A DNA stretch of 64,000 bases, taken from assembly GCA_964542785.1 (NCBI GenBank), contig CAZIUK010000001.1, forward strand, positions 197,115 to 261,114, given 5' to 3'. The notes beneath the pieces are model-generated. The model made no database searches and was not told the DNA's origin. It worked only from the letters and a program-made list of their open reading frames with translations. The position numbers and the translations under genes were made by a program. Shown here piece by piece: positions 6,241-22,607 of the stretch (the stretch's first letter is position 1; each line of letters opens with the position of its first letter). The stretch comes from an uncultured Planctomycetales bacterium. Lineage in GTDB: Bacteria > Omnitrophota > Gorgyraeia > Gygaellales > Profunditerraquicolaceae.

Positions 6241-6246
6241 TTAAGT

Positions 6247-7710: not shown

Positions 7711-8478
7711 ATGAAAGTAGTTATATTAGCAGGAGGCAGGGGCACACGCATTAGCGAAGAGACAGAAGTTTTGCCAAAGCCGATGATTCAGATAGGAGGC
7801 AGGCCTGTGCTTTGGCATATAATGAAACTATACTCCCACTATGGCTTTAATGATTTTATTATCTGCTTAGGGTATAAGGGTTTTGTGATTAAAGAATATT
7901 TTGCAAATTACTTCCTGCACTCCTCTGACATAACCATAGACCTAAATAATAATAAAATAGAGGTTATCGGTTCAAAGGCAGAGCCTTGGAAGGTTACTCT
8001 TATTGATACGGGTTTAGAGACGATGACCGGAGGCAGGATTAAGCGGATAGAAAAATATACGCAAGATAAACCCTTTCTTTTAACTTACGGCGACGGGGTA
8101 GGGGATGTAAATATAAAAGAATTAGTAGAGTTCCATAAATCAAAAAACAAGCTTGCCACAGTAACTGCCGTACAATTAGAAGGAAGGTTCGGCGCTTTAA
8201 ATATTGAAAAAGAAGATGAGGTCTCTTCCTTTGCGGAAAAACCCCGCGGCGACGGAGCTTGGATAAACGGCGGATTTTTTGTTTTAGAGCCGGGGATATT
8301 CAAATATATCAAGGACGATACTATTATTTGGGAGCATGGGCCATTAGAAAAGCTAGCCAAAGACAATCAGCTAAACGCCTACAAGCATAAAGGTTTTTGG
8401 AAGTGTATGGATACCTTAAGGGATAAGGTTGAGTTTGATCTTCTATGGAGTGCCGGGAAAACCCCTTGGATAAAATAG
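7711..8478 (+). CDS. rfbF: glucose-1-phosphate cytidylyltransferase
   Basis: N-term MKVVILAGGRGTRISEETEVLPKPMIQIGGRPVLWHIM matches RfbF/DdhA; 255 aa. Confidence 0.9.
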   Translation: MKVVILAGGRGTRISEETEVLPKPMIQIGGRPVLWHIMKLYSHYGFNDFIICLGYKGFVIKEYFANYFLHSSDITIDLNNNKIEVIGSKAEPWKVTLIDTGLETMTGGRIKRIEKYTQDKPFLLTYGDGVGDVNIKELVEFHKSKNKLATVTAVQLEGRFGALNIEKEDEVSSFAEKPRGDGAWINGGFFVLEPGIFKYIKDDTIIWEHGPLEKLAKDNQLNAYKHKGFWKCMDTLRDKVEFDLLWSAGKTPWIK

Positions 8479-8489
8479 CAAGAGTATTT

Positions 8490-9461
8490 ATGAATAGAAA
8501 GTTTTGGGAAAATAAGAGAGTTTTAATTACTGGCTTTGAAGGATTTTTGGGCTCTAACCTTACAAAAGAACTTCTTAAGACAAAAGCCAAGATAGTAGGG
8601 TTAGATATTAAAACCTTCCGTAAGGAAACAATTTTATCCCGCGATGATTATAAAAGGTTTACCGTATATAAAGGTAGTGTAGCTAACTTTAACCTCGTTA
8701 AAAAGATACTCCGTAAGCACTCTATAAACGTAATTTTTCACTTAGCCGCAGAGGCGACTGTTGGCAGTAGCCACAGCCACCCTCGTAAGGCGTTTAAGTC
8801 CAATATAACCGGGACTTGGGAGGTATTAGAGTCAACGCGTAACCAAGGGAAGATAGAGGCAATAGTAGTCGCTTCAAGCGATAAGGCGTATGGAAGCCAT
8901 AAAAAACTCCCTTACCGCGAGGATGCGCCTTTAATAGCCAACCACCCTTATGACGTATCCAAAAGTTGCGCTGACTTGATAGCGCAAACTTATGCTTATA
9001 CCTATGATTTGCCGATAGCAGTTACCCGTTGTGGGAATATATTCGGCCCCGGGGACTTTAACTTTACCCGCCTTATACCGGATGCTATCCGCTCTGCGCT
9101 TAAAAACCGCTTCTTTTTTATCCGCAGTAACGGAAAGTTTATACGCGACTATATCTATGTAAGCGATATAGTAGATGGGTATATACTCTTAGCTGAAAAG
9201 ATAAGAAAACTAAAACTTAAAGGAGAGGCATTTAATTTTAGCGATGAGAAGCCAAAGAGGGTATTAGAGGTGGTAGAAAAAATTTATCAACTGATGAAGA
9301 AAGAAAAGCGCTATAAAATATTAAACAAAGCAGAGTATGAGATAAAGAATCAATACTTATCTTCTAAAAAATCCAAAAGGATATTAGGTTGGAAGCCGCG
9401 CTATTCCTTTGAGTCGGGGTTAAAAGAGACGATTAAGTTTCTGCGTAAGGAATTATTATGA
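8490..9461 (+). CDS. rfbG: CDP-glucose 4,6-dehydratase
   Basis: FWENKRVLITGFEGFLGSNL Rossmann motif, YDVSK catalytic motif; follows rfbF. ATG 8490 preferred over the track start 8445. Confidence 0.85.
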   Translation: MNRKFWENKRVLITGFEGFLGSNLTKELLKTKAKIVGLDIKTFRKETILSRDDYKRFTVYKGSVANFNLVKKILRKHSINVIFHLAAEATVGSSHSHPRKAFKSNITGTWEVLESTRNQGKIEAIVVASSDKAYGSHKKLPYREDAPLIANHPYDVSKSCADLIAQTYAYTYDLPIAVTRCGNIFGPGDFNFTRLIPDAIRSALKNRFFFIRSNGKFIRDYIYVSDIVDGYILLAEKIRKLKLKGEAFNFSDEKPKRVLEVVEKIYQLMKKEKRYKILNKAEYEIKNQYLSSKKSKRILGWKPRYSFESGLKETIKFLRKELL

Positions 9462-10504
9462 GTTTGATTGAACGGGATTTAGCCCACATATTAGATAAAA
9501 CTAAATTTTTATGGAGAGAAGTAAAGGGAAAGAAGATATTTGTTACCGGAGGCACGGGTTTTATCGGGCGCTGGCTCTTAGAGAGTTTTGCCTTTGCTAA
9601 TAAAGAGTTAAACCTTAATGCCTCTCTTGTGCTCCTTACAAGAGACCCAAGGCGTTTTGAAAAGAAAGCTAAAAATATTGTTGCTGATAAGTCTATAAAT
9701 TTGCTCAAAGGAGATGCCGTAAGTTTTACTTTCCCAAAAGGAAAATTTGATTTTGTCATCCACGCGGCAACAGAGGACAGGTATCCTTTAAATTCTTTAG
9801 AGTTGTATGAGAGTAATGTAAAAGGAACGCAGAGGGTTTTAGATTTTGCGGTAAGGTGCGGGTGTAAAAAGTTTTTATTTACCAGTTCCGGAGCTGTCTA
9901 TGGAGTTCAACCTATAAATATAGCTAATCTGCCTGAAGATTATCCGGGGGCGCCTAAGCCAAATGAAATAAATTATGCTTATGGGCATAGCAAGAGGATA
10001 TCTGAGTTTTACTGCGCGCAATATGCGAAAAAATTCGGCTTTGGGGTAAAGATTGCTCGCTGTTTTGCTTTTTTAGGGCCCTATCTTCCTTTAGACTTAA
10101 ACTACGCAGTAGGCAACTTTATAAGGGATGCCCTTACTAGGAAGAGCATAATCGTCAAGACAAATAACCGCGTGTATCGCTCTTATTTATACTCTGCTGA
10201 TTTGGCAATTTGGCTTTGGACTATTTTGTTTAAAGGTGAGAATAACTTGCCCTATAATGTCGGTTCTTCCAAGCCGATAACTATTTTAGATTTGGCTAAA
10301 AAGATAACCCGTATTTTAGGAGTATCAAAAAAGATTGTAATACTAAAGAAGGGTAAGCGCATAAAGACAGAGCGCTATATCCCGGATGTTAAATTAGCGC
10401 AAACTACCCTTAACTTAAAAGAGTTTATTGGTTTAGGCCAAGGCATCCGCAGGATGTCAGAGTTTTATTCAAGCGCAACTTGTATAAATAGCGGGTGTCA
10501 ATAA
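9458..10504 (+). CDS. NAD-dependent sugar epimerase/reductase (SDR family)
   Basis: VTGGTGFIGRWL and the YGHSK YxxxK motif. Confidence 0.8.
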   Translation: MSLIERDLAHILDKTKFLWREVKGKKIFVTGGTGFIGRWLLESFAFANKELNLNASLVLLTRDPRRFEKKAKNIVADKSINLLKGDAVSFTFPKGKFDFVIHAATEDRYPLNSLELYESNVKGTQRVLDFAVRCGCKKFLFTSSGAVYGVQPINIANLPEDYPGAPKPNEINYAYGHSKRISEFYCAQYAKKFGFGVKIARCFAFLGPYLPLDLNYAVGNFIRDALTRKSIIVKTNNRVYRSYLYSADLAIWLWTILFKGENNLPYNVGSSKPITILDLAKKITRILGVSKKIVILKKGKRIKTERYIPDVKLAQTTLNLKEFIGLGQGIRRMSEFYSSATCINSGCQ

Positions 10505-10518
10505 AAAAAGGAGAAGAT

Positions 10519-11388
10519 ATGAGTGAAGTCAAGATTGCTAATGTTTTAGTAGGGGATAATCATCCTTGTTATATTGTCGCTGAAATAGGGATTAACCATA
10601 ACGGAGATATTGATATAGCTAAGATGCTCATTGATGTTGCGATAAAGTTTGGATGTAATGCCGTTAAATTCCAAAAGAGGACCGTTGGTGTCGTCTATTC
10701 TGCTGAAGAGCTTGCCCGGCCAAGAGAGAGCCCTTTTGGCTCTACTAATGGCGATTTAAAATATGGGTTAGAGTTTGAATTAGAGGATTATCAGGAGATT
10801 GATAATTATTGTCGCCAAAAAGGCATTGTTTGGTTTGCTTCTTGCTGGGATGAGGCATCTGTTGATTTTATACAGCAGTTTGATGTCCCTTGTTTTAAGA
10901 TTGCCTCAGCTACCCTTACTGACAGCAAGCTCTTAAGCCACCACAGGTCTAAGGCAAAGCCCATCATATTAGGGACAGGGATGAGCACGATTGAACAGAT
11001 TGACCGCGCGGTAGAGGTTCTTGGCAAGAAGGACTTAATTATACTTCATTCTACAAGCACGTACCCTGCAAATTACGATGAACTAAACTTAAAAGTAATC
11101 AGCGTCCTTCAAAAAAGATACGGGGTTCCGATAGGTTATTCCGGCCATGAAACCGGCGTCCCTGCCTCTGTCGCAGCTGCGGCTTTAGGCGCTTGTATGA
11201 TTGAGCGCCATATAACTTTAGACCGGGCAATGTGGGGTTCGGATCAGGCAGCATCTTTAGGGCCTTCGGGAGTTGAGCAATTAATACGCGATATCAGGTT
11301 AGTAGAGATGTCTATGGGAGACGGAGTAAAGAAGGTTTATGAGAGGGAGTACCCAATCCTAAAAAAACTTCGCAGAGTCCACTCTTAA
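10519..11388 (+). CDS. NeuB-family (N-acylneuraminate/nonulosonate synthase-like) protein lacking the C-terminal SAF domain
   Basis: CYIVAEIGINHNGDIDIAKMLIDVA..GCNAVKFQ NeuB signature; ends about 50 aa short of canonical NeuB; RBS AAAGGAGAAG before ATG 10519. Confidence 0.75.
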   Translation: MSEVKIANVLVGDNHPCYIVAEIGINHNGDIDIAKMLIDVAIKFGCNAVKFQKRTVGVVYSAEELARPRESPFGSTNGDLKYGLEFELEDYQEIDNYCRQKGIVWFASCWDEASVDFIQQFDVPCFKIASATLTDSKLLSHHRSKAKPIILGTGMSTIEQIDRAVEVLGKKDLIILHSTSTYPANYDELNLKVISVLQKRYGVPIGYSGHETGVPASVAAAALGACMIERHITLDRAMWGSDQAASLGPSGVEQLIRDIRLVEMSMGDGVKKVYEREYPILKKLRRVHS

Positions 11389-11393
11389 AAAAA

Positions 11394-13187
11394 ATGATAA
11401 AGGTCTCAGATTACATAATGAAATTCTTGGTATCTAAAGGGGTACGCAATGTCTTTATGCTCCCGGGAGGAGGGGCTATGCATTTAGTTGACTCCCTTGG
11501 CAGGTGTAAAGAGCTAACCTATACCTCTTTTTTGCACGAACAGGCATTGGCTATTGCAGTAGAATCCTTTAGCCAATTCTCAGGTTTTGTTGGAGTAGGG
11601 CTGGTTACTTCTGGTCCCGGCGGGACGAATACGATTACCGGAGTAACTGCTGCTTATCTTGATTCTACCCCTTGCATCTTTATCTCCGGGCAGGTAAAGC
11701 GTTCGGACTTAAAGTTAAAGAGTAGGCTGCGTCAAAAAGGCCCGCAAGAAGTGGACATTATCTCGCTGGTTTCTCCTATTACAAAATATTCAGTTATGGT
11801 CTTAGAGCCAAAGGATATACGTTATCACTTAGAAAAGGCATGGGTATTAGCAACAACTGCAAGAAAAGGCCCTGTTTGGTTAGATATCCCTTTAGATGTC
11901 CAGTCTGCGCTTATTGATGAGGATAAGTTAAAGGGTTTTTCTCTTAGGCCCAAAGCAAGACAGAGGGGTTTGACTAATAAGGTTAAAAGAGTTATTTCTC
12001 TTCTAAATAAGTCAAAATGCCCTTTGATTTTAGCCGGCAATGGGGTGAGGCTTTCAGAAGCACAAGAGCTTTTAAGCAATTTTATAGAGGTTAATCAGAT
12101 ACCTGTTTTGCTTACTTGGAAGGCAATTGACTTTTTTGATAGCGCTCATACTTTAAATTTCGGCAGCCCCGGTATTATGGGCAGCCGTTTTGCTAACTTT
12201 ATAGTGCAAAATTGCGACCTTTTGCTTATATTAGGAAGCAGGTTAGATCCCAGTATTACTGCTTTTAATAGTAGGGAGTTTGGGAAGAATGCAACAAGGG
12301 TTATGGTTGATATTGATAGGAGAGAGATTTCTAAGATACCTAACCTTGATTTAGGCGTTGTAGCAGATATGGGCGAGTTTTTAACGACTTTACAAAATAA
12401 CCAGAGATTGATAAACCTTAAGCCCCGCTTAGAGTGGCTTTCATATTGTAAGGGGCTTAAAGAAAAATACCCGGTTGTCCTAAAGGATTATTCCGATAGT
12501 AAAGATAATATAAATCTTTATTATTTTATTGATACTCTTTTTAAGGAGTTATCTTCAGATGATGTTATTACGCCTGAGAGTTCAGGCTCTGCCGGAGAGG
12601 TTACTTATCAGGCAATTAACGTTAAAAAAGGGCAAAAAATAAGAAATGCCGCGGGTTTAGGGTCAATGGGTTTTGGCCTGCCTTATGCAATAGGCGCTTG
12701 TATTGCCACAGGCATTAAGCGCACTATACTCATAAATGGCGATGGGGCTTTTCAGTTAAATATCCAAGAGTTAGAGGTTGTTGCGCGCTTAAAATTGCCT
12801 ATTAAGATGTTTATACTGGAGAATAACGGATACGGTAGTATTATGGCTACACAAAGAAATATCTTTAATGGTTTTTATGTAGGCGCTCATCCTGAAAGCG
12901 GGCTTACCCTGCCTAATTTATCTAAAATTGCCAATACCTATGGGATTACTTATGTAGAAGCAACTAACCATAATGACTTAACCCCTGCCATAAAACGTTC
13001 TTTGCAGGCAGACGGCCCTGTTTTATGCGCGGTCAAGGCTAAAAATCACATAACTTCTCCAAGGGTTCAATCATTAAAACTTTCCAACGGCGGGATGATT
13101 TCAAAACCCTTAGAGGATATGTGGCCGTATTTATCGCCTGAGGAGATAAAAGAGAATATGTTAAAAAAGGACTATATATATGATTAA
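11394..13187 (+). CDS. thiamine-diphosphate enzyme, acetolactate-synthase-large-subunit-like (YerE-like candidate)
   Basis: GPGGTNTITGVTAAYLDSTPCIFISGQV and the ThDP motif GDGAFQLNIQELE..ILENNGYG. Confidence 0.85.
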   Translation: MIKVSDYIMKFLVSKGVRNVFMLPGGGAMHLVDSLGRCKELTYTSFLHEQALAIAVESFSQFSGFVGVGLVTSGPGGTNTITGVTAAYLDSTPCIFISGQVKRSDLKLKSRLRQKGPQEVDIISLVSPITKYSVMVLEPKDIRYHLEKAWVLATTARKGPVWLDIPLDVQSALIDEDKLKGFSLRPKARQRGLTNKVKRVISLLNKSKCPLILAGNGVRLSEAQELLSNFIEVNQIPVLLTWKAIDFFDSAHTLNFGSPGIMGSRFANFIVQNCDLLLILGSRLDPSITAFNSREFGKNATRVMVDIDRREISKIPNLDLGVVADMGEFLTTLQNNQRLINLKPRLEWLSYCKGLKEKYPVVLKDYSDSKDNINLYYFIDTLFKELSSDDVITPESSGSAGEVTYQAINVKKGQKIRNAAGLGSMGFGLPYAIGACIATGIKRTILINGDGAFQLNIQELEVVARLKLPIKMFILENNGYGSIMATQRNIFNGFYVGAHPESGLTLPNLSKIANTYGITYVEATNHNDLTPAIKRSLQADGPVLCAVKAKNHITSPRVQSLKLSNGGMISKPLEDMWPYLSPEEIKENMLKKDYIYD

Positions 13188-13650
13188 GCTCTTATTACTT
13201 GATATTGACGGCGTGTTAACAGACGGAAAGGTTACGGTTGATTCAAAAGGCAACGAATATAAAACCATAAGCTTTAAAGATATTGATGCAATATTTGAGG
13301 CAAAGCGCAAAAACATACTGGTAGGCCTTATTACCGGCGAAGATACCCCGGTTACGCTTTTTTTCCGCAGGCGTTTTAAGCCGGATTTTTTTTACAAGGG
13401 GTGTAAAGATAAGGTAAGAGCGCTTAAGGAGATTATGCGCAAAACCAAAATAGGGATTAATGAAATTTGTTATATCGGCGACTCTAAGCACGATATTCCT
13501 GTTATGAAATTGATAAAGTTCTCTGCTTGTCCGTCTGATGCTTTAACTGAAGTAAAAAGAATAGCAAAGATACGCCTTAAATCTACCGGAGGAGAGGGCT
13601 GTGTCCGGGAAGTTTTAACCTATATTTTTAACTTATATATTGAAAGGTAA
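13180..13650 (+). CDS. HAD-IIIA phosphatase, KdsC/YrbI-like (sugar-acid phosphate phosphatase)
   Basis: LLLDIDGVLTDGKV DxDG motif; GDSKHD; 156 aa. Confidence 0.7.
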   Translation: MIKLLLLDIDGVLTDGKVTVDSKGNEYKTISFKDIDAIFEAKRKNILVGLITGEDTPVTLFFRRRFKPDFFYKGCKDKVRALKEIMRKTKIGINEICYIGDSKHDIPVMKLIKFSACPSDALTEVKRIAKIRLKSTGGEGCVREVLTYIFNLYIER

Positions 13651-13655
13651 AGCCT

Positions 13656-14774
13656 ATGAAGATAAATTATAATGATATTCAACTAAAAAAATATCTTTTG
13701 AAGTTATTTAGAGAAAAGAGAAATTATAAAAAAGAGCTTAAGGGCTTAATAGATAAATATAATTTTGTGGTATTTTATGGTTGTGGAATGATTTTAAGTA
13801 GTATTATAGAAACATGGGACAAACAAATAAACAGGAAGATATCTTATTTGTGTGATAGCGATAGCAGAAAATGGGGAAAGTATTTTCACGGGATAAAGTG
13901 TTTATCGCCTAAAGAGTTGATTGCTATAAAAAACGACCCTGTGGTCTTTGTTACTATAGGAGATTACAAGGAGGTATTTAATTCTTTGAAAAAGAAGAAA
14001 TTTCCCTCGGTAAATTTATTATATAAATATGATTTAGAAGCATCGCGTTTTTTAATCAATTGCAATATTTTGGATGTGGTCGGCAAATTGATCAGGGTTT
14101 ATAGTTATTTATCCGACGCTCAATCTAAACGGGTGTTTTTATCTATAATTAACCGGGTTTTGGATGAAAAAGCTCCGGTAAATATAATGGCAGGTGTTTA
14201 CGAACCGGATCAGTATTTTCCTTCAGATGTAATTAACCTTACAAAAAATGAGAGCTTTGTTGATATTGGCGCTTTTGACGGAGATACTATCAGGGATTTT
14301 ATAAAGAGGGTTCGGGGAAGATTTGATAATATCTTTTCCTTTGAGGTTAATAAAAACAACTTTAAGTTATTAAGGAAGAGCATTGATAATATTCCTAATA
14401 ATTCTAAAATAAAGATTTATAACTTTGGCATTTCTGATAAAGAGTATGATATTAGGTATAGTTTTGGTGATTCTCAAAGCACTATAGGTGTTGGAACCGG
14501 TAAGGGGCATGTTAAGCCATTAGATAATGTTTTATCAAAGAAAAAAGTTACATTTATAAAGATGGATATAGAGGGAGCGGAGCTCAATGCCTTGCGTGGT
14601 TCAAAGGAGATAATTAAATCCCAAAAACCGAAATTGGCTATAAGCGTTTACCATGACTTTAAACATCTGTGGGAAGTTCCATTATATATAAAAAAACTTG
14701 TTCCGGATTACAAGATTTATTTTCGTCATCATACAAACTTAGAATATGAAACAGTTTGTTATGCTATTCTTTAA
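13656..14774 (+). CDS. FkbM-family methyltransferase
   Basis: FVDIGAFDGDT and IKMDIEGAELNAL FkbM motifs. Confidence 0.8.
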   Translation: MKINYNDIQLKKYLLKLFREKRNYKKELKGLIDKYNFVVFYGCGMILSSIIETWDKQINRKISYLCDSDSRKWGKYFHGIKCLSPKELIAIKNDPVVFVTIGDYKEVFNSLKKKKFPSVNLLYKYDLEASRFLINCNILDVVGKLIRVYSYLSDAQSKRVFLSIINRVLDEKAPVNIMAGVYEPDQYFPSDVINLTKNESFVDIGAFDGDTIRDFIKRVRGRFDNIFSFEVNKNNFKLLRKSIDNIPNNSKIKIYNFGISDKEYDIRYSFGDSQSTIGVGTGKGHVKPLDNVLSKKKVTFIKMDIEGAELNALRGSKEIIKSQKPKLAISVYHDFKHLWEVPLYIKKLVPDYKIYFRHHTNLEYETVCYAIL

Positions 14775-14798
14775 TTATATTTTTATTTTGGAGGGGTT

Positions 14799-15854: not shown

Positions 15855-16866
15855 ATATACTGCCCTTAAATCAACTAACCGGCAAAACCTAAAGGAGATC
15901 CTGCCCCTTAAAAAGCCGTTTACCCTTTTGATAGAGCCATCTAGTTTATGTAATTTTAGATGCATCCAATGCTTTCAGTCTCTTACAATAGATAACTACT
16001 TTACAAGGACTAAGATGAATATGCCCATTAATCGCTTTAAGCAGATATTAGGGCAATTAAAAATCTGGAAAGGGCCTAATCTTAAAGTTCTTAAATTAAA
16101 CTTGTATGGCGAGCCATTTATGAGCCCTGATTTTTACGCTATGCTTAAACTTGCCAAAGAAGCGGATATCGCAGAGCGGATAGAGACAACCACTAATGCT
16201 TTTTTATTAAATGAGCGTATAGCCGAAGAGTTAGTGCGTCTTCAACTTGATTATGTCAGGGTATCTATCTATGCTGTTGACCAGAAGACGCATGAAGAGC
16301 GCACAGGGGTAAAGGCGGATTTCCGTATTATTTATGAAAACCTAAAAGCCCTTAAAAATATAAAAAGAAGGGTTAATTCTTTAAGCCCGTTTGTTAGTTG
16401 CAAGATGTTGGATTCTTTTGGAGAGGAGAATAAACGTTTTGAAGATACATACAGAGAGGTTTGTGATGAAGTTTACATAGAAAAGCCGCATAATTGGCTT
16501 AAGGTAGAGGGTGTAAACTTTATGCAAAACTATTATCAAGATGATATTAATAAGGCAGTTAATGATTTTACGGCTCATACCTCAAGAAGGATTGCTTGCC
16601 CTATGCCTTTTACTACTATGGCTGTGCGCTCTAATGGGGATGTATCTCCTTGTTGTGTGGATTTTATCGGCGGGACTAACTTAGGTAATGTTGATAAAAA
16701 CTCTTTAGAAGAGATATGGAACTCAGATAAATGGTTTGAGTTTCAAAAGATGCAGTTAGAGGATAGAAAGCAGGAGAATTACTCTTGCGCAAGATGCGAT
16801 ATCTATCTAAATGACTACTACACCTTAGATAATATTGATGGTTTTCCCGTTGAAAAATTAAGGTAA
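15844..16866 (+). CDS. radical SAM protein with C-terminal SPASM domain (GTG start)
   Basis: CNFRCIQC motif; C-terminal CPMPF...GDVSPCC...; overlaps the previous stop. Confidence 0.8.
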   Translation: MKIKYTALKSTNRQNLKEILPLKKPFTLLIEPSSLCNFRCIQCFQSLTIDNYFTRTKMNMPINRFKQILGQLKIWKGPNLKVLKLNLYGEPFMSPDFYAMLKLAKEADIAERIETTTNAFLLNERIAEELVRLQLDYVRVSIYAVDQKTHEERTGVKADFRIIYENLKALKNIKRRVNSLSPFVSCKMLDSFGEENKRFEDTYREVCDEVYIEKPHNWLKVEGVNFMQNYYQDDINKAVNDFTAHTSRRIACPMPFTTMAVRSNGDVSPCCVDFIGGTNLGNVDKNSLEEIWNSDKWFEFQKMQLEDRKQENYSCARCDIYLNDYYTLDNIDGFPVEKLR

Positions 16867-16901
16867 GTAAATAGGGTTATTTTTCTTAAGGAGGATACTT
16901 A

Positions 16902-17843
16902 ATGACTAATAAGTTGTTAATAAGCATAGTAAGCGGATGTTACAACGAAGAGGGGAATCTCCAGGAGTTTTATGACCGAATTATAAAGATTTTAAGAGGA
17001 TTCCCGCACTATTCGTATGAAATAATTATCGCAGATAATTACTCTACGGATAAGAGCAAGGAAATATTAAGACGGATTGCTTTAAAAGATAAAAACTTTA
17101 AGGTAATTTTTAATTCTAATAATTTTGGGCATATCCGCTCAGGATATAATGCGTTATTGCAGGCAACCGGGGATGCGGTTATTTTGTTAAGTTCTGATTT
17201 ACAAGACCCGATAGAACTTATACCGTCTTTAATTAAAAAGTGGGAAGAGGGATTCCAGGTAGTTGTGGCTTTAGGAAAGAAAAAATACGGAAACCCTCTT
17301 ATTCTCTTATTAAAGAAGGCCTATTATTACTTGCTCTCTAAAGATTCCAAAGAAACTGATGTTATACCGAATTTTTATGGTTTTGGTTTATACGGTCGTA
17401 AATTTATGCAGGCATTGCGTAAGTATAATGAGCCGGAGCCGTATTTCCGTAATTTAATCAGTGAAATTGGTTTTCGGCGTGCTGAGATTGAATTTGTTCA
17501 ACCGCCTAGAAAATGCGGGAACTCAAAGTACAACTTCTTTACTCTATATGATTTAGCCATGCTTGGGTTTATTAATCAATCTAAATTGTTGTTGAGATTG
17601 CCGGTTTTTCTTGCTTTTTTACTGGGGGGCATTAGTTTATTTTCAATTTCTATTATTATGATATATAAACTTATACATTGGGGGTGGGTTTTACCGGGAT
17701 CAATTTTATTTTTCTTAATCTTTTTATTTGCTTTTTCTGTGCAGATAATATTTATCGGTGTTATCGGAGAATACTTATCTGTTATTTTGTCTCAAGTTAA
17801 AAATAAGCCCCTTGTAATAGAGGAGGAGAGGATTAATTTTTAA
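16902..17843 (+). CDS. GT2 glycosyltransferase, polyprenyl-phosphate sugar synthase-like (ArnC/GtrB type) with C-terminal TM helices
   Basis: SIVSGCYNEEGNL, DNYSTDKS, DLQDP motifs; two C-terminal TM helices. Confidence 0.8.
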   Translation: MTNKLLISIVSGCYNEEGNLQEFYDRIIKILRGFPHYSYEIIIADNYSTDKSKEILRRIALKDKNFKVIFNSNNFGHIRSGYNALLQATGDAVILLSSDLQDPIELIPSLIKKWEEGFQVVVALGKKKYGNPLILLLKKAYYYLLSKDSKETDVIPNFYGFGLYGRKFMQALRKYNEPEPYFRNLISEIGFRRAEIEFVQPPRKCGNSKYNFFTLYDLAMLGFINQSKLLLRLPVFLAFLLGGISLFSISIIMIYKLIHWGWVLPGSILFFLIFLFAFSVQIIFIGVIGEYLSVILSQVKNKPLVIEEERINF

Positions 17844-17857
17844 AAAAGGAGAATGAA

Positions 17858-18997
17858 GTGCCGGTTTTTGCCTGTCGGGTTTGTAAAAATAATTTTTTTG
17901 ATAAGCCGTTATTATCTTATAAAGATATGCCTAAGGGAGCGCAGAACTTTCCGGATTCTTGCTCCTTAAAATCAGATGCAGGTGTTGATATATCAATTTA
18001 TCAATGCTCCGGGTGCGGGCTTGTGCAATTAAGCAATGACCCTGTTCCCTATTATAGGGAGGTAATAAGGGCTGTGGCTTTTTCAGATGTTATTAAGGCC
18101 GCAAAAACCAAACAATTTATGGATTTTATCAATAAATATTCTCTTAAGGATAAGAAAATCATAGAGATTGGTTGCGGCCGCGGGGAGTTTCTTTCTTTAT
18201 TAAAGCCTTTAGATGTAATGGCTTATGGTTTAGAGTTTTCAGATAATTCTGTTGGCTATTGTAAAAAAAACGGGCTTAATGTGCAAAAAGGATATTTAGA
18301 TGATAGCAATATTAAATTAAAGAATAGCCCATTTGACGCTTTTTTATTACTGATGTTTTTAGAGCATATGCCTGACCCGAACACTGCGTTAAGAGCGGTG
18401 TATAATAATTTATCAGAAGGCGGGGTGGGTATAGTTGAAGTCCCGAATTTTGATATGTTTTTAAGGAATAAGCTCTTTTCAGAGTTTGTGATTGACCATT
18501 TGCTTTATTTTGTCAAGGATACTTTAAGGGTAACTTTATTTTTAAATGGATTTGAGGTCCTTGAAAGCAATGAATTGCGCGATGATTATGTTATCTCTTT
18601 TGTCGTTAAAAAAAGAGCAAAAACAGATATTAAGCAATTTTATGATTACCAGTTAAAAATAACTTCAGAGATTAACGAATATATAAACCGTTTTGGAAAA
18701 AAGAGAATTGCTATATGGGGGGCAAGCCATCAGGCGCTTTTTATTATTTCTTTGACAAAAATATCCGATAAAATTAAATATGTCATAGATTCGGCTCTTT
18801 TTAAGCAGGGAAAATATACCCCTGCTACCCATGTGCCTGTTGTTTCTCCTGACCTTCTTGATTCTGACCCGGTTGATGCGGTTATCATTATGGCGGCTAG
18901 CTATTCTGATGAGGTATTGGGCATAATACGGCAGCGTTTTAGCAAAGATATATCCATAGCTATATTGCGGGATTTTGGGCTGGAGATATGTAATTAA
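17858..18997 (+). CDS. NDP-sugar C-methyltransferase (TylCIII-like: Zn-ribbon + SAM MTase + C-MT C-terminal domain); GTG start
   Basis: CRVCKNN...CSGCG zinc ribbon, IIEIGCGRGEFL SAM motif; length and architecture of sugar 3-C-methyltransferases. Confidence 0.7.
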   Translation: MPVFACRVCKNNFFDKPLLSYKDMPKGAQNFPDSCSLKSDAGVDISIYQCSGCGLVQLSNDPVPYYREVIRAVAFSDVIKAAKTKQFMDFINKYSLKDKKIIEIGCGRGEFLSLLKPLDVMAYGLEFSDNSVGYCKKNGLNVQKGYLDDSNIKLKNSPFDAFLLLMFLEHMPDPNTALRAVYNNLSEGGVGIVEVPNFDMFLRNKLFSEFVIDHLLYFVKDTLRVTLFLNGFEVLESNELRDDYVISFVVKKRAKTDIKQFYDYQLKITSEINEYINRFGKKRIAIWGASHQALFIISLTKISDKIKYVIDSALFKQGKYTPATHVPVVSPDLLDSDPVDAVIIMAASYSDEVLGIIRQRFSKDISIAILRDFGLEICN

Positions 18998-19006
18998 GTT
19001 TTTTAA

Positions 19007-20542
19007 ATGGATAATACATTTTTAACTAACCAAAAAAGAGTCAATTTCTTTCCTAAAGCATTGGTAATTATATCTATTTTCCTTATTACTTTTATTATCT
19101 TTGGTTTTTTTTCTACTATTGGCGTTGATCCGCATCATGATGGATTAATGTTTAAGACGGCATTGGATGTTGCTAAGGGTAAGATGTTATTTAGGGATAC
19201 CTTTACTCAATATGGAGTGCTTGTTCATATAATTCATGCTTTATTACTGAATATTTTAGGGGAGTATTTAATTGTCATAAAAATTGCTACTGTTTTTTTC
19301 TATGCTTTGATATTTGTTTTTTTATTTTTAGTCCTAAAAAGAATTATACCGCGGATACTTACGGTTATTTCTATCGTAGTTTGGCTATTATTAGCCCCAT
19401 TTTATATTATGATTTTTTTGCCTTGGCCTTCGGTTTACGCGCTTTTTTTCCAATTATTATGCGTATGGCTTTTGATGCGTTGGTTAGAAACAAGGTTGAG
19501 TTTATATATTTTTTTAACAGGTATTACTACGGCTTTAGTTTTTTTATGCCGGCAGCCGGTAGGTTTTTTTACCTTTACTGCTATGGCCTTTTTTTATCTC
19601 TATCTTTTTTTACAAAGAGAAATCAGCATATTTGAATTTAGAAAGATTCTTTTAAATTATGCAGCAGCTTATTTTGCGATTTTTTCAATTTTTTTAATCT
19701 GGTTATTAATTAACAACGCTTTGATAGATTGGTGGAAGCAATCCATTATTATGCCTTTTCTTTGGGCGGTTAAACAGCCAGCCGGTATTAACATAGGAAG
19801 TTCTTCTGCAGCTGTTTCTCAGCCCTTTATTGGGCTTGATAACCTTGGCATTGGTTTAGTTAGCACTAGGGGGTTTTATGTTGAAAGAGCTGGATTATTT
19901 TTATACTTAGCCCGGGCAATTGTTTATTTTTGGTTTTTACTTCCTTTTTTATCATTTATAAGGAACCGTAAGAACATCCCTATAGTTTTATTTTCTATTA
20001 TTTGTATTGCTTCTGGTTTACAAATTTATCCGGTTCGCGATATTCGTCATATTTATTGGTCATTTGTTTTGATGCCGGGTATAATTGCCCTATTGGTTTA
20101 TCAGTTTACCGGAAAGTTCTTTAAGTATAACCCTAAAGTTTCAAAAAAGGCAGTACTTTTCATAAGTGCTAGTATTTTTATACTCATTTTTTTGCTTCTC
20201 ACCGCAGTATATCTTATAAGGGGCATAGACAAGGCAAAGGATGAGTATTATTTTGCTGATAAACCCCTTGTTTTAAAAGGCATGCGTTTAACTAAAAAAG
20301 AGAGGGATTTTTACCAGCGGGTCTACCAAAAAATAGAAAAATATTTTATGGGTAATCCTTCAGGTAATGTCCTTATTGATAGTGGAAATATGATTTTTTT
20401 AACCTTTGATAACAGGATAAAAAATATACATCCTATATATTTTAATTTATCTTATTCTCCTTGCTATCCGGAGTATCAAAAAATAAGAAATGAATATATC
20501 TTATCTAATAACCCTTTAATACTTCTTGATAATTTAGAATGA
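19007..20542 (+). CDS. polytopic membrane protein (>=10 TM), possibly a GT-C type glycosyltransferase or polymerase
   Basis: Hydrophobicity only; no recognisable motif. Confidence 0.5.
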   Translation: MDNTFLTNQKRVNFFPKALVIISIFLITFIIFGFFSTIGVDPHHDGLMFKTALDVAKGKMLFRDTFTQYGVLVHIIHALLLNILGEYLIVIKIATVFFYALIFVFLFLVLKRIIPRILTVISIVVWLLLAPFYIMIFLPWPSVYALFFQLLCVWLLMRWLETRLSLYIFLTGITTALVFLCRQPVGFFTFTAMAFFYLYLFLQREISIFEFRKILLNYAAAYFAIFSIFLIWLLINNALIDWWKQSIIMPFLWAVKQPAGINIGSSSAAVSQPFIGLDNLGIGLVSTRGFYVERAGLFLYLARAIVYFWFLLPFLSFIRNRKNIPIVLFSIICIASGLQIYPVRDIRHIYWSFVLMPGIIALLVYQFTGKFFKYNPKVSKKAVLFISASIFILIFLLLTAVYLIRGIDKAKDEYYFADKPLVLKGMRLTKKERDFYQRVYQKIEKYFMGNPSGNVLIDSGNMIFLTFDNRIKNIHPIYFNLSYSPCYPEYQKIRNEYILSNNPLILLDNLE

Positions 20543-20558
20543 AGCATATATTTATGTT

Positions 20559-21875
20559 ATGAGCAAAGCCAATGAAGTTAAGAGCAGGATTTTTAGGTTA
20601 GTTAAAGAGTTTTATTGTAAGCAGAAATGTAATAAACCCTTTTCCTTCGGAGAAAGTAGGGTTGAATACGGGGGAAGGGTCTATGATGAAAAAGAGATTA
20701 TTAACCTTGTTGATTCTGCGCTTGAGTTTTGGTTAACTGCCGGCCGTTATACAAAGGAGTTTGAAAGCGCGTTAGCAAGGTTTATTAAAATTAAGCATTG
20801 CCTTTTGACAAACTCCGGCTCTTCAGCCAACCTTTTAGCCATGACTGCCCTAACCTCGCCCTTATTAAAAGAAAGGCGCCTTAAGCCAAAGGACGAGGTT
20901 ATAACTACTGCCTGTGGTTTTCCTACTACGCTTAACCCTATTTTGCAAAATAATCTTACTCCTATATTTATTGATATAGAGTTAGGAAATTATAATATTG
21001 ATGTAAATAAAATTAAAAGAGCTATCTCTAAGAGGACAAGGGCAATTTTTACTGCGCATACTTTAGGTAATCCCATAAACATTGATGAGATAAAAAAATT
21101 AGTAAAAAAACATAAACTCTGGTGGATTGAAGATAATTGCGATGCCTTGGGCTCAAGGTATCGCGGTAAATATACAGGCGGCTTTGGCGATATTTCTACC
21201 TGCAGTTTTTATCCTCCGCATCATATTACTATGGGAGAAGGGGGAGCGGTTTTAACAAACAATCCTCTTTTAAGAAGAATTGTATTATCTTTGCGTGATT
21301 GGGGTAGGGATTGCTGGTGTGAGCCAGGCAAGGATGATACCTGTAAAAGAAGGTTTAGCCAAAAATTCGGCACCCTACCCTATGGGTATGACCATAAGTA
21401 TGTATATTCACATATCGGCTATAATTTAAAAGTTACTGATATGCAGGCGGCAATAGGTTGCGCGCAATTAGATAAACTGCTTAAGTTTATTTTAGTAAGA
21501 AAGGCTAATTTTAAGGCCATATACGGGTTCTTTAAGAAATACGAAGATTATTTTATACTGCCTCAAGCGCAAGAATATTCAAGCCCAAGTTGGTTTGGTT
21601 TTCCAGTGTTAGTTAAAGAAGGCGCGCCTTTCAAAAGAAATGATATAGTTAATTATTTAGAGTCGCATAAGATTGCTACAAGGATGCTTTTTGGGGGGAA
21701 TTTATTAAGACAGCCGGCTTATAAGGGTATAAAATGCCGCATAGTTGGAAACTTAAAGAATACTGACTTAGTTATGAATAATCTTTTTTGGATTGGCGTT
21801 TATCCGGGGTTAACTAAAGAAAAACTTTGCTATATAGAAAAAACTTTATCTGATTTTATGAGGAGGCATAGATGA
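20559..21875 (+). CDS. rfbH: CDP-4-keto-6-deoxy-D-glucose-3-dehydrase (E1, RfbH/DdhC type)
   Basis: DegT-fold protein; His-His (FYPPHHITMGEGG) replaces the PLP lysine; CWCEPGKDDTC fits the CXCX7C 2Fe-2S motif of E1; 438 aa. Confidence 0.85.
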   Translation: MSKANEVKSRIFRLVKEFYCKQKCNKPFSFGESRVEYGGRVYDEKEIINLVDSALEFWLTAGRYTKEFESALARFIKIKHCLLTNSGSSANLLAMTALTSPLLKERRLKPKDEVITTACGFPTTLNPILQNNLTPIFIDIELGNYNIDVNKIKRAISKRTRAIFTAHTLGNPINIDEIKKLVKKHKLWWIEDNCDALGSRYRGKYTGGFGDISTCSFYPPHHITMGEGGAVLTNNPLLRRIVLSLRDWGRDCWCEPGKDDTCKRRFSQKFGTLPYGYDHKYVYSHIGYNLKVTDMQAAIGCAQLDKLLKFILVRKANFKAIYGFFKKYEDYFILPQAQEYSSPSWFGFPVLVKEGAPFKRNDIVNYLESHKIATRMLFGGNLLRQPAYKGIKCRIVGNLKNTDLVMNNLFWIGVYPGLTKEKLCYIEKTLSDFMRRHR

Positions 21876-22567: not shown

Positions 22568-22607
22568 ATATAAGATTTTATTGCAAGATTATAGAGGAAG
22601 GGTTTTA

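Follow-up and report, generated by a model that had tools for sequence, protein, structure and literature searches.

We found that positions 7711-24658 of the window (the whole 64 kb stretch of DNA analyzed) probably form one operon-like glycan locus for a CDP-activated 3,6-dideoxyhexose branched at C-4 with a long polyhydroxyalkyl chain, as in caryophyllose and gastriose, and destined for a surface glycolipid, probably lipopolysaccharide (LPS). The branch precursor seems to be supplied by a sialic-acid-synthase-like enzyme and a phosphatase instead of the usual aldolase. Most likely the pathway type is a known one, and what sets this locus apart is the proposed use of a phosphoenolpyruvate (PEP)-dependent NeuB-family synthase with a phosphatase as the donor module. 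The array is far from chance, since its 16 same-strand (+) genes are tightly packed (overlapping or at most 35 nt apart) and their order recurs in about 90 unrelated loci; these are not all independent, the metagenome loci having been picked by NeuB similarity (67%-81% identity), and one horizontally spread cassette is possibly over-represented. The genes are as follows:

7711..8478, +, RfbF/DdhA, glucose-1-phosphate cytidylyltransferase (TIGR02623; Pfam NTP_transferase)
8445..9461, +, CDP-glucose 4,6-dehydratase of a non-canonical subfamily, "rfbG" role (extended SDR with S-D-K/Y-x3-K signature)
9458..10504, +, second extended SDR, proposed YerF-like branch-carbonyl reductase (Pfam Epimerase)
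10519..11388, +, SAF-less NeuB-family PEP-condensing synthase (PF03102 NeuB, 256 bits; alternative GTG start at 10495)
11394..13187, +, YerE-like ThDP-dependent carboligase, predicted to branch the sugar at C-4 (three TPP domains)
13180..13650, +, KdsC/KDN-9-P-phosphatase-type C0 HAD phosphatase (3E81 match; D8-x-D10 nucleophile motif)
13656..14774, +, FkbM-family methyltransferase, probable O-methylation of the sugar or branch (PF05050/TIGR01444)
14799..15854, +, radical SAM/SPASM enzyme 1, predicted accessory sugar modification (Radical_SAM and SPASM; CX3CX2C at 49-56)
15844..16866, +, radical SAM/SPASM-twitch enzyme 2, predicted accessory sugar modification (SPASM and Radical_SAM; CX3CX2C at 36-43)
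16902..17843, +, GT2 polyprenyl-phosphate glycosyltransferase, ArnC/PgfS/GtrB-like (Glycos_transf_2; two C-terminal TM segments)
17858..18997, +, TylC3/TcaB9-type sugar C-methyltransferase with N-terminal 4-Cys ribbon (Methyltransf_23 and Methyltransf_14)
19007..20542, +, GT-C membrane glycosyltransferase, GT39/ArnT-like by the naming of its homologs (about 11 TM segments)
20559..21875, +, RfbH/DdhC, E1 CDP-6-deoxy-L-threo-D-glycero-4-hexulose-3-dehydrase (PRK15407; 3BCX alignment; hallmark residues)
21872..22567, +, soluble GT2 of the DPM1/PpgS/AglJ-like polyprenyl-phosphate sugar synthase type (Glycos_transf_2; no TM segment)
22581..23417, +, polysaccharide deacetylase (PF01522, 97 bits; same operon)
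23417..24658, +, Wzy_C-family O-antigen ligase-like membrane protein, last gene of the array (PF04932, 66 bits; multiple TM segments)

A first-pass annotation had read the locus as a CDP-3,6-dideoxyhexose branched-sugar pathway, and the five genes it named (RfbF, the CDP-glucose 4,6-dehydratase-type SDR, RfbH, the ThDP enzyme, and the C-methyltransferase) are all where it had placed them. Its inventory missed eight others: the second SDR, the NeuB-like and phosphatase genes, FkbM, the two radical SAM/SPASM enzymes, the ArnC-like GT2, and the 11-TM GT-C. The E1 dehydrase and the YerE-type carboligase bear out the pathway; as to the branch, a long polyhydroxyalkyl chain is favored over the two-carbon unit it had suggested.

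RfbF, which also heads the cassette in related loci, passes the TIGR02623 equivalog (413.5 bits, cut-off 300), and its signature predicts that it forms CDP-glucose. The adjoining SDR contains SSDKAYG ... YDVSK, an instance of the [ST]DK..Yx3K motif; S-D-K ... Y-x3-K is listed in a review table as the CDP-Glc 4,6-dehydratase signature. Its top PDB matches are dTDP- and CDP-glucose 4,6-dehydratases. The earlier assignment of CDP-4-keto-6-deoxyglucose synthesis to rfbF and rfbG therefore holds on the TIGR02623 pass and this signature, though "rfbG" is below the TIGR02622 equivalog cut-off (207.5 bits against 278.45), and the signature-bearing SDR would make that intermediate. RfbH matches PRK15407 at 700 bits and aligns without gaps to the Yersinia pseudotuberculosis E1 (3BCX, E = 1e-156). 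Its cysteine pattern is C194-X57-C252-X1-C254-X7-C262, and His221-His222 stands at the aminotransferase lysine column, where the 3BB8 H220K chain has K. The E1 hallmarks described before (His-His and CXCX7C) are thus present, and realignment to 3BCX shows no PLP lysine. With His for Lys and a [2Fe-2S] motif, RfbH would remove the 3-OH.

The E3 reductase reported as missing from the locus is missing from all 64 kb of the window as well. Pfam searches of about 70 ORFs (most of at least 90-100 aa) found no protein combining Fer2 with FAD_binding_6/NAD_binding_1, and a six-frame motif scan of every open frame of at least 70 codons found no E3. E3 was likewise not found in about 96 related loci. 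E1 without a linked E3 is what these loci normally show, and not an anomaly of the window, so the idea that it marks this locus as odd is dropped, the more so as SpnQ, an E1-type dehydrase that works with general ferredoxin or flavodoxin reductase pairs, provides a precedent (PMC8987622). A reductase not linked to the locus, be it a housekeeping ferredoxin/flavodoxin system or an E3 encoded elsewhere, would supply the electrons for E1.

The ThDP enzyme has GDG-X24-NN at 449-478 and Glu49. It matches JanthE (8RPH, 5e-100) and PpYerE (5AHK, 5e-82), both ketone-accepting carboligases (PMC12188165, PMC12247030), better than the best AHAS-deposited chain (4.5e-71). Its homologs lie in 13 genome loci (Nitrospiraceae, Clostridia, Bacteroidales, Alphaproteobacteria, and Absconditabacterales), all of them glycan loci, and in 12 of these they adjoin rfbF, rfbH, or both. 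These sequence comparisons support a YerE-type sugar-branching carboligase, in agreement with the first-pass annotation. Automatic pipelines name the protein "acetolactate synthase I/II/III large subunit," and TIGR00118, the ALS equivalog, is its best NCBIfam match. However, a genuine biosynthetic acetolactate synthase present by chance in a glycan locus is extremely improbable, and effectively refuted: the score (355.6 bits) is far under the cut-off (538), ilvN and ilvC were not found in the 64 kb window, the homologs sit in glycan loci, and JanthE and PpYerE are closer than any AHAS-deposited chain.

The NeuB-like and phosphatase genes directly flank the ThDP gene in the window. The NeuB-like protein falls under both the NeuB and PseI equivalog cut-offs; its top PDB match is 6NCS (290 aa), and its His-containing motifs "GYSGHE" and "ERHIT" are common to the aligned 6NCS and 1VLI chains. 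For the phosphatase the top PDB match is the KDN-9-P phosphatase BT1713 (3E81, 3.6e-28), with scores under the cut-offs of the NCBIfam KDN-9-P phosphatase (123.5 bits, cut-off 180) and TIGR01670 KdsC-family (104.7, cut-off 106.95) models. A search seeded with the NeuB-like protein alone gave at least 582 metagenome relatives, of which 80 loci were taken (67%-81% identical). A downstream stretch of at least 1.5 kb was available for 47 of these, and 42 of the 47 have a ThDP homolog, usually in the order NeuB-like, HAD phosphatase, ThDP behind RfbF, RfbG, and RfbH; in most cassette loci the phosphatase gene separates the NeuB-like gene from the ThDP gene.

In the published scheme for acyl-branched sugars, an aldolase makes a 2-keto acid that a YerE-like enzyme adds to CDP-4-keto-3,6-dideoxyglucose (Steitz 2022, PMC9306805). 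One or two positions upstream of the ThDP gene we observe an HpcH aldolase (L008 and L012), an HMGL-type aldolase (L007), a NeuB-cupin fusion (L005, L006, and L011), or a SAF-less NeuB (the window, L004, and L014); by analogy, the NeuB-like gene is at what corresponds to the aldolase position of that scheme. The NeuB-linked ThDP enzymes form a cluster separate from the aldolase-linked ones and from those of two loci without an adjacent donor gene. Because the NeuB-like and phosphatase genes fit the published scheme, a long-branched sugar resembling caryophyllose or gastriose is likely, and not the two-carbon yersiniose. The donor-making role of the pair is proposed from gene neighborhood. A PEP-dependent synthase with a phosphatase implies a phosphorylated aldose substrate: the NeuB-family enzyme would condense PEP with an aldose phosphate to a 3-deoxy-2-ulosonate phosphate, the phosphatase would strip the phosphate, and the ThDP enzyme would decarboxylate the 2-keto acid and attach the acyl-anion equivalent at the ketone carbon C-4 of CDP-4-keto-3,6-dideoxyglucose. 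The ulosonate is apparently consumed in this way instead of being activated as a glycosyl donor. Neither the window nor any ThDP-containing locus has a KdsB/NeuA-type cytidylyltransferase, whereas L035, L042, and L045, three of the five NeuB-like loci that lack a ThDP gene, do; the ulosonate therefore appears to have two alternative fates, activation with CMP or use by the ThDP enzyme. Counting against the proposal, 3-deoxy-2-ulosonic acids are mostly cyclic hemiketals, and we know of no demonstrated case of a ThDP enzyme using one.

The two-carbon model of the first-pass annotation ignored the NeuB-like and phosphatase genes that accompany ThDP genes in those 42 of 47 loci. In an extended form, the ThDP enzyme would add a two-carbon branch from pyruvate as for yersiniose, the NeuB-like and phosphatase proteins would contribute a separate KDN/Kdo-like acid to the same glycan, and a methyl branch would come from the C-methyltransferase. 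YerE with pyruvate is indeed the sole fully characterized case on a native CDP-sugar (PMC9306805), MyGE and JanthE also take pyruvate, and in the three cytidylyltransferase-bearing loci a member of this NeuB-like subfamily (70% identity) belongs to a classical CMP-ulosonate pathway. We nevertheless consider this unlikely: a separate acid could not be activated locally, no CMP-ulosonate cytidylyltransferase being present in the window or the ThDP-containing loci, the order of NeuB-like, phosphatase, and ThDP genes is kept in most of the ThDP-carrying loci, the pair lies at the pyruvate-aldolase position of other YerE-like loci, and the NeuB-linked ThDP enzymes form their own cluster.

Less probable again is a pathway without CDP-sugar branching, in which the ThDP protein acts on the ulosonate simply as a decarboxylase or carboligase (giving, for example, a 2-deoxy-aldose or another keto-sugar) and the E1 product is converted separately to an ordinary 3,6-dideoxyhexose. 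In its favor, ThDP-dependent decarboxylation of 2-keto acids is common, and the second SDR could serve as a 4-ketoreductase. Among the proposed long-donor enzymes ketone acceptance is reported for ErwE only, and MyGE did not accept ketones in vitro under the conditions tested (PMC12247030). Against these points stand the near-universal linkage of ThDP genes to rfbF/rfbH across phyla, the ketone-accepting activity of the nearest solved relatives, and the absence of a second nucleotidyltransferase that could activate a separate sugar.

In the branching pathway that we favor, the branch carbonyl would be reduced by the second SDR. This YerF-like role is proposed by elimination: the protein has GGTGFIG, Y175-x3-K179, and SSGAVYG, shows no Asp-Lys/Glu dehydratase couple, and has UDP-glucuronate decarboxylase as its top PDB match (1e-26). 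In many cassette loci the gene just before the NeuB-like gene encodes a homolog (43%-65% identity).

The product would then be decorated by the FkbM methyltransferase, whose gene comes after the ThDP gene in many related loci, and in this strain probably also by the C-methyltransferase and the two radical SAM enzymes. Homologs of radical SAM enzyme 1 (53%-73% identity) occur in cassette loci L004, L017, L018, L037, and L056, and those of enzyme 2 in L004, L018, L005, and L006; the weak top PDB matches of enzyme 2 are the sugar-acting radical SAM enzymes BtrN and DesII. The C-methyltransferase has an N-terminal CRVC...CSGC (CxxC...CxxC) and matches TylC3-like 4RV9 (1e-15) and TcaB9 (3e-12) best. 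Comparison with a near-identical sister strain (L001) shows that the C-methyltransferase and both radical SAM genes are an optional, strain-variable decoration module: all three are missing from it. The C-methyltransferase had been assigned to the branching pathway itself. Its TylC3-like character and a pathway link in a subset of loci stand (homologs of 59%-68% identity beside the cassette in L004, L054-56, and L078), but because it lies within a five-gene segment missing from the sister strain, it is an accessory decorating enzyme outside the core. Between the two strains the FkbM protein is only 73% identical and the polysaccharide deacetylase 99.6%.

For delivery, gene neighborhood and published schemes suggest that the ArnC/GtrB-like GT2 would load the sugar on undecaprenyl phosphate and the GT-C protein would transfer it in the periplasm. 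The GT2 scores under both NCBIfam cut-offs (PgfS 144.6 bits, ArnC 99.3 bits), and 16 loci, among them L008, L009, L014, L034, L052, L053, L065, and L087, have a homolog (41%-54% identity) next to the cassette. The GT-C protein itself has no Pfam or NCBIfam match; many of its 217 homologs have PF13231 (PMT_2) and are named "glycosyltransferase family 39" or "ArnT-like." The route is uncertain, because the sister strain retains the sugar genes yet lacks the ArnC-like GT2; in the place of the GT-C it has an unrelated GT87-like GT-C. The soluble GT2 matches NCBIfam AglJ and PpgS under cut-off, and in L004 a homolog (60%) follows RfbH, with a GtrA-like flippase gene before RfbH. Downstream of the Wzy_C gene are GT9 heptosyltransferase genes (25684-26769 and 29995-31020).

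The arrangement resembles ArnC/ArnT and GtrA/B/C periplasmic modification in having a GT2 with C-terminal TM segments adjoining the region of a polytopic GT-C, but here the sugar would be a CDP-derived branched dideoxyhexose, and no GtrA-like gene was found in the window. SpnQ of spinosyn forosamine synthesis is likewise a PMP/[2Fe-2S] 3-dehydrase whose cluster encodes no cognate E3. Its substrate is a dTDP-2,6-dideoxy sugar and its setting an antibiotic cluster of an actinomycete, whereas the window has a close E1 ortholog in a surface-glycan locus, with a CDP-sugar as its expected substrate. In Bacteroides thetaiotaomicron, a NeuB-family KDN-9-P synthase is paired with the KDN-9-P phosphatase BT1713. 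The window has the same combination of NeuB-family synthase and C0-type HAD phosphatase, but both are under the equivalog cut-offs, the synthase lacks a SAF domain, and there is no CMP-transferase; the classical CMP-linked arrangement is found instead in L035, L042, and L045.

Krug et al. are said to have surveyed more than 200 YerE-like clusters in silico in 2024. In the literature covered, with that survey (Krug et al., Angew. Chem. e202403535) outside its scope, we found no NeuB paired with YerE or branched sugars, and a 2025 review mentions neither "NeuB" nor "phosphoenolpyruvate." The yersiniose A cluster of Y. pseudotuberculosis (DdhA-D, YerE, and YerF) shares RfbF, the CDP-Glc 4,6-dehydratase, identical E1 hallmark residues, a YerE-type ThDP enzyme, and a reductase with the window. 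It differs in its two-carbon branch from pyruvate, its dedicated E3 (DdhD/AscD), and its lack of NeuB-like and phosphatase genes. Closest are the acyl-branched systems for erwiniose (ErwE/F/I/J, Pectobacterium atrosepticum), caryophyllose (MMAR_2331/2332, Mycobacterium marinum), and gastriose (MygE/F/I, M. gastri) (PMC9306805). These too have DdhA/B/C-type genes leading to CDP-4-keto-3,6-dideoxyglucose and, adjoining the gene of their YerE-like ThDP enzyme, a dedicated gene for the synthesis of a functionalized 2-keto acid; a reductase using NAD(P)H completes the set, methyltransferases being optional, and the product enters LPS or LOS. The window differs from them in its additional radical SAM and C-methyltransferase genes and its lack of a linked E3, and its proposed donor enzymes are a PEP-dependent NeuB-family synthase and a KdsC-type phosphatase, whereas the described clusters use a class II pyruvate aldolase (BphI/HMGL-like or HpcH/citrate-lyase-like).

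The glycan locus consists of 16 genes on one strand (7711-24658), which overlap or are separated by no more than 35 nt. In order, and with families from Pfam and NCBIfam, they are:

7711 onward, same strand: RfbF
8445-9461, same strand: 4,6-dehydratase-type SDR ('rfbG')
9458-10504, same strand: SDR2, a second extended SDR
10519-11388, same strand: NeuB-family protein without a SAF domain (NeuB-like)
11394-13187, same strand: ALS-like ThDP enzyme
13180-13650, same strand: KdsC/KDN-9-P-type HAD phosphatase
next, same strand: FkbM methyltransferase
next two, same strand: radical SAM/SPASM proteins (rSAM1 and rSAM2)
next, same strand: ArnC/PgfS-like GT2
17858-18997, same strand: C-methyltransferase, CMT (Methyltransf_23 + Methyltransf_14)
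next, same strand: 511-aa membrane protein, no family match
20559-21875, same strand: RfbH (PRK15407, 700 bits)
next, same strand: soluble GT2
next, same strand: polysaccharide deacetylase
up to 24658, same strand: Wzy_C ligase-like protein

The first-pass annotation had read 7711-21875, the first 13 of these genes, as a branched deoxysugar locus; the features it named are present, but it overlooked eight genes in that stretch. Downstream, heptosyltransferase, aminotransferase, and more GT genes continue to ~32.3 kb, and the remaining window holds housekeeping genes (PriA, Fmt, gap-pgk-tpi-secG, Fur, the glycine cleavage system, and rubrerythrin). The G+C content is 0.34-0.37 over 12-26 kb, compared with 0.39-0.43 in the flanks up to 12 kb. 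At the upstream edge of the glycan locus lies a DUF4143 AAA ATPase gene (6232-7425), and its downstream edge coincides exactly with an AbiEi/AbiEii type IV toxin-antitoxin pair (32407-33625). The 286-nt gap before rfbF holds a near-consensus sigma-70-like match (TTGCCA-16-TATAAT, 11/12; 7600-7627), which is a consensus match only. In a scan of the window, promoter-like sites do not exceed shuffled sequence (71 vs. 63.9 ± 8.3), and terminator-like sites reach about twice the shuffle mean (31 vs. 15.7 ± 3.8).

Several side features lie near the array. Two manC-type fragments (24853-25296 and 25341-25628), comprising the first 147 aa of a mannose-1-P guanylyltransferase and then a 95-aa cupin/PMI tail, probably remain from a gene of ~470 aa that suffered an internal deletion; the near-identical sister strain L001 has both, at 100% and 99% identity. 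Short fragment-like ORFs at 28197-29699 (a 173-aa C-terminal part of a methyltransferase domain, a 114-aa GT2 N-terminal half, and an overlapping 128-aa ORF without a match) are possible pseudogenes inside the LPS locus. Just upstream of gap-pgk-tpi-secG are two tandem paralogous GalT/HIT-like (DUF4921/DUF4931-type) nucleotidyltransferase genes (37704-39726).

Signatures in the core enzymes indicate that CDP-glucose would be converted to CDP-4-keto-6-deoxyglucose and then deoxygenated at C-3 by an E1-type dehydrase. RfbF scores 413.5 bits with the glucose-1-phosphate cytidylyltransferase model TIGR02623 (cut-off 300.25). The 'rfbG' SDR carries SSDKAYG and YDVSK, and thus the Asp-Lys couple of the [ST]DK ... 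Yx3K signature that has been tabulated for CDP-Glc 4,6-dehydratases, dTDP-Glc enzymes having [ST]DE (PMC8987622). Its TIGR02622 score is under the cut-off (207.5 vs. 278.45 bits), so it belongs to a divergent subfamily; about half of the dehydratases in related loci are of this SSDKAYG subfamily, the others being canonical T[ST]DKCYEN enzymes. The roles first proposed for these two genes hold for RfbF, which exceeds its equivalog cut-off, and for 'rfbG' by signature but not by equivalog score.

RfbH, already assigned to the E1 type from a histidine at the PLP-lysine position and an iron-sulfur cysteine motif, fits that assignment closely. It aligns without gaps to the Yersinia pseudotuberculosis E1 (3BCX; E = 1e-156), no PLP lysine appears on alignment, and its PRK15407 score is far above the cut-off of 423. 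H221 falls on E1 H220, the residue that is K in the 3BB8 H220K chain. The cysteines are arranged C194-X57-C252-X1-C254-X7-C262, which we take to be the spacing of the E1 [2Fe-2S] motif, and 34 of 41 RfbH homologues keep it strictly. A four-cysteine motif and the His-for-Lys change are both described for E1-type dehydrases (PMC8987622).

An E1 without a linked E3 (the DdhD/RfbI/AscD-type reductase) had also been reported here, and our searches agree: none of the ~70 Pfam-scanned ORFs of the 64-kb window combines Fer2 with an FNR-type FAD/NAD domain, and a six-frame scan of the window for Fer2/FNR motifs found no E3. Nor was an E3 found in ~96 related loci (~0.8 Mb), where the single candidate, in L011, is an FNR-like ORF of 229 aa that lacks a Fer2 domain. 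An E1 without a linked E3 is thus normal for this cassette and should not be treated as an anomaly. An E3 gene may lie outside the 64-kb window. As candidates for a dedicated E1 flavodoxin we rejected two 148-aa ORFs, one upstream of RfbH in L004 (GtrA-like) and one in L014 (a GT2 fragment). The E1-type dehydrase SpnQ works with general ferredoxin or flavodoxin reductase pairs (PMC8987622). The host looks anaerobic from the rubrerythrin and Fe-S-rich proteins encoded in the window, and reduced ferredoxin should therefore be plentiful. An anaerobe is likewise suggested by rubrerythrin (60447-61025) taken together with a tandem pair of MinD/ParA-type P-loop proteins that have 4Fe-4S dicluster domains inserted and lie ahead of a DUF2099 protein (48257-50838).

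Motif criteria for a YerE-like carboligase were a three-domain ThDP fold, GDG-X(24-27)-NN, and a catalytic Glu. The ThDP enzyme has TPP_enzyme_N, M, and C domains, GDG at 449-451 leading to NN at 477-478 (GDG-X24-NN), and a catalytic Glu49 that is invariant in 49 homologues. Its best PDB matches are 8RPH (5e-100) and 5AHK (5e-82), compared with 4.5e-71 for the best chain deposited as an AHAS. We take 5AHK to be PpYerE (Hampel et al. 2018, cited in PMC12247030). The chain 8RPH is JanthE, a YerE-like aldehyde-ketone carboligase (PMC12188165).

We weighed the possibility that this is a bona fide acetolactate synthase. The enzyme is under the TIGR00118 cut-off (355.6 vs. 538.35 bits), and the window contains no ilvN or ilvC. 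A scan of a genome collection with the ThDP protein gave 13 loci, from Nitrospiraceae, Clostridia, Lachnospiraceae, Bacteroidales, Alphaproteobacteria, and Absconditabacterales; rfbF, rfbH, or both are near the ThDP homologue in 12 of these and ilvN/ilvC in none. The nearest named relative (66% ThDP identity) is in a Nitrospiraceae MAG locus, and in most metagenome loci of sufficient length the ThDP gene likewise accompanies genes for CDP-4-keto-3,6-dideoxyglucose. The equivalog score, the greater closeness to JanthE and PpYerE, the glycan-gene neighbors, and the lack of ilvN/ilvC together lead us to reject an acetolactate synthase. What had been labeled YerE/ALS-like is, as judged from PDB matches and cut-off, YerE-like rather than IlvB and has no neighboring ilvN/ilvC, so that the outcome that would have refuted the first-pass proposal did not occur; it is a putative sugar-branching carboligase.

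What surprises in the locus is its donor module, rather than the missing E3 or the CMT. Steitz et al. (2022) put forward a unifying scheme for acyl-branched sugars, part of which they demonstrated: The neighbor of the ThDP gene codes for an aldolase whose product is a functionalised 2-keto acid, YerE-like enzymes (ErwE, MMAR_2332, MyGE) add this acid to CDP-4-keto-3,6-dideoxyglucose, and a YerF-like reductase, sometimes with a methyltransferase, completes the product, the branch being C4 in erwiniose, C6 in caryophyllose, and C7 in gastriose (PMC9306805). A class II pyruvate aldolase (BphI/HMGL-like or HpcH/citrate-lyase-like) is missing beside the ThDP gene of the window, its position being taken by a NeuB-family synthase and a HAD phosphatase.

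The NeuB-like protein (289-297 aa) has a PF03102 NeuB domain (256.4 bits), the only domain detected by Pfam, which found no C-terminal SAF (antifreeze-like) domain. It shares the motifs GYSGHE and ERHIT with the aligned 6NCS and 1VLI chains, and the histidines of these motifs would be the metal ligands. The NeuB-like protein scores under the NeuB/PseI equivalog cut-offs (TIGR03569, 255 vs. 399.65; TIGR03586, 201.6 vs. 340.25). The HAD phosphatase has the D8-I-D10 motif and is also under cut-off (TIGR01670, 104.7 vs. 106.95; KDN-9-P phosphatase equivalog, 123.5 vs. 180). Its closest match is the KDN-9-P phosphatase BT1713 (3E81; 3.6e-28), which implies a phosphorylated aldose as substrate for the synthase.

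Across the related genome loci and the window, the first or second gene upstream of the ThDP gene is an HpcH/HpaI aldolase in L008 and L012, an HMGL-type aldolase in L007, a NeuB-cupin fusion in L005, L006, and L011, and a SAF-less NeuB in the window, L004, and L014. Since four gene types share this slot, the NeuB-like gene occupies the 'aldolase' position. In a test independent of the ThDP gene, the query against metagenome contigs was an alignment of the NeuB-like protein alone, and at least 582 stretches encode relatives. We examined 80 loci (67%-81% identity); 47 have at least 1.5 kb downstream and were used for the count, and 42 of these carry a ThDP homologue. The usual order is RfbF, RfbG, RfbH, (SDR2), NeuB-like, HAD phosphatase, ThDP, FkbM. 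In a neighbor-joining tree of 49 ThDP homologues, NeuB-linked sequences, most of them picked by the NeuB query, stand apart from aldolase-linked ones and from two loci without a donor gene beside the ThDP gene.

In these metagenome loci, identity to the window is 67%-81% for the NeuB-like protein, mostly 42%-50% for the ThDP enzyme, and mostly 30%-41% for the phosphatase. This suggests that the NeuB-like gene may be under strong constraint or have spread recently by horizontal transfer.

A NeuB product might also be activated as a CMP-ulosonate. We found no CTP_transf_3 cytidylyltransferase in the window (Pfam; tblastn and phmmer with KdsB) or in the ThDP-containing loci; across all ORFs, phmmer with E. 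coli KdsB detects such enzymes only in L035, L042, and L045, all without a ThDP gene (downstream sequence in L042 is too short for it to count among the 47). With KdsB matches confined to these three loci, a CMP-ulosonate route in the window locus is rejected. Because the cytidylyltransferases occur only in loci lacking the ThDP gene, the same NeuB subfamily would feed either CMP activation or, far more often, ThDP branching. L035 (5921-8885) places a NeuB-like gene (~70% identity) beside two CTP_transf_3 cytidylyltransferases, one fused to the HAD phosphatase, which is a classical CMP-ulosonate pathway. A SAF-less NeuB without a ThDP gene is also present in L042, L045, and L080, and extra NeuB paralogues in L035, L045, and L080.

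The cupin is fused C-terminally to NeuB in L005 (8460-9998), L006 (8474-9988), and L011 (5349-6857), from Clostridia and Bacteroidales, and has a weak D-lyxose-isomerase-like match. No KdsC-type phosphatase was found in these three loci, consistent with a non-phosphorylated route there, and the fused cupin may act as an aldose-ketose isomerase that provides a substrate without a phosphate.

From the conserved neighborhood and the published acyl-branched sugar scheme, we infer roles for the NeuB-like protein, phosphatase, and ThDP enzyme. The NeuB-like synthase would condense PEP with an aldose phosphate to a 3-deoxy-2-ulosonate phosphate, the HAD phosphatase would remove its phosphate, and the ThDP enzyme would decarboxylate the ulosonate and add the acyl unit to the C-4 ketone of the CDP-sugar. 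SDR2, which has Y-x3-K, lacks the dehydratase couple, and is kept in the cassette of related loci, would reduce the branch carbonyl, and FkbM would O-methylate the branched sugar. We predict a branch whose length, five to eight carbons, would be set by the aldose: a 1,3,...-polyhydroxyalkyl chain that has a methylene at 2' and ends in CH2OH. Gastriose likewise carries a hydroxyl at the end of its branch.

Our joint reading, which we hold tentatively and with doubt slightly ahead of belief, is of an undescribed acyl-branched sub-class that, to judge by the number of NeuB-like metagenome relatives, is widespread. The SAF-less NeuB and KdsC-type phosphatase would turn PEP and a sugar phosphate into a 3-deoxy-2-ulosonic acid donor (KDO/KDN/DAH-like), which the YerE-like ThDP enzyme would fuse to CDP-4-keto-3,6-dideoxyglucose. 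The result would be a 12-14-carbon sugar with a polyol branch ending in CH2OH, here C-methylated and radical-SAM-modified, with E1 relying on non-dedicated reductases and the NeuB subfamily serving CMP activation in some loci and ThDP branching in others. The earlier suggestion of a possibly novel branched sugar was reasonable.

The CMT, first described as TylCIII-like, is of the TylC3/TcaB9 type, with a CRVC...CSGC N-terminal Cys4 zinc ribbon, a Rossmann SAM domain, and a C-terminal Methyltransf_14 domain (50.6 bits vs. cut-off 23.5; Methyltransf_23, 56.8 bits); its PDB matches, TylC3-like 4RV9 (1e-15) and TcaB9 (3e-12), are distant relatives. TylC3-type enzymes methylate the carbon adjoining a keto group, which on chemical grounds makes C-3 and C-5 of the 4-keto sugar, and C-2' in the acyl branch, all plausible targets. 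CX3CX2C is intact in both rSAM1 and rSAM2. We set aside solved structures as a guide to their reactions, as they gave weak and uninformative matches only (MoaA, BtrN, DesII, BlsE).

The sister strain L001 is colinear with the window over 8385-14778 (96.2%) and 20574-27059 (96.9%). Between these, 14779-20573 (rSAM1, rSAM2, GT2, CMT, and GT-C) corresponds to a single GT87-like GT-C gene in L001 (6398-8317). Replacement of the whole segment in so close a relative makes CMT, rSAM1, and rSAM2 accessory, and the swap looks like a serotype-type cassette exchange. The L001 flanks are 96%-100% identical, and the junction genes are mosaic (FkbM 73% at the amino acid level, RfbH 92%, the following GT2 83%). 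In other loci the CMT and radical SAM genes do belong to the pathway: rSAM1-rSAM2-CMT follow FkbM in L004, a CMT homologue (59%-60%) immediately precedes SDR2 and the NeuB-like gene in L054-56 and L078, and rSAM1 homologues occur in L017, L018, L037, and L056.

The 511-aa protein has ~11 TM segments and 217 homologues, many with PMT_2 and named GT39 or ArnT-like, on which basis we consider it a GT-C enzyme. Homology to the 609-aa L001 protein was rejected, BLASTP giving no match. Homologues of the ArnC/PgfS-like GT2, which has two C-terminal TM segments, stand beside the cassette in 16 loci, and L004 has a GtrA-like gene before RfbH. Together these make an ArnC/ArnT- or Gtr-type route via undecaprenyl phosphate our best guess for delivery; judging from the Wzy_C and heptosyltransferase genes, the target would be LPS.

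Caryophyllose, gastriose, and erwiniose are rare long-branched 3,6-dideoxy surface antigens whose biosynthetic logic was proposed only in 2022. These results suggest a second route to the branch donor, in which PEP-dependent NeuB-type condensation and dephosphorylation replace the pyruvate aldolase. The terms 'NeuB' and 'phosphoenolpyruvate' are both absent from a 2025 review (PMC12247030), and the literature searched did not yield NeuB paired with YerE or branched sugars; a 2024 survey of >200 YerE-like clusters may list such neighbors. Metagenomes from soil, peat, and sediment contain the cassette in abundance, and pipelines name its key genes there 'acetolactate synthase' or 'N-acetylneuraminate synthase'. 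Should the reading be true, hundreds of loci could be given corrected annotations, very long-chain sugars that are new would be predictable from sequence, and ThDP carboligases that take polyhydroxylated keto acids would become available for biocatalysis.

In working logic the locus resembles the erwiniose, caryophyllose, and gastriose clusters, and its core is common to the yersiniose pathway. It differs in that its donor chemistry is of the PEP-dependent NeuB type with a phosphatase and not that of a class II pyruvate aldolase; it has no linked E3, and it adds a radical SAM/C-methyl module and GT-C delivery genes.
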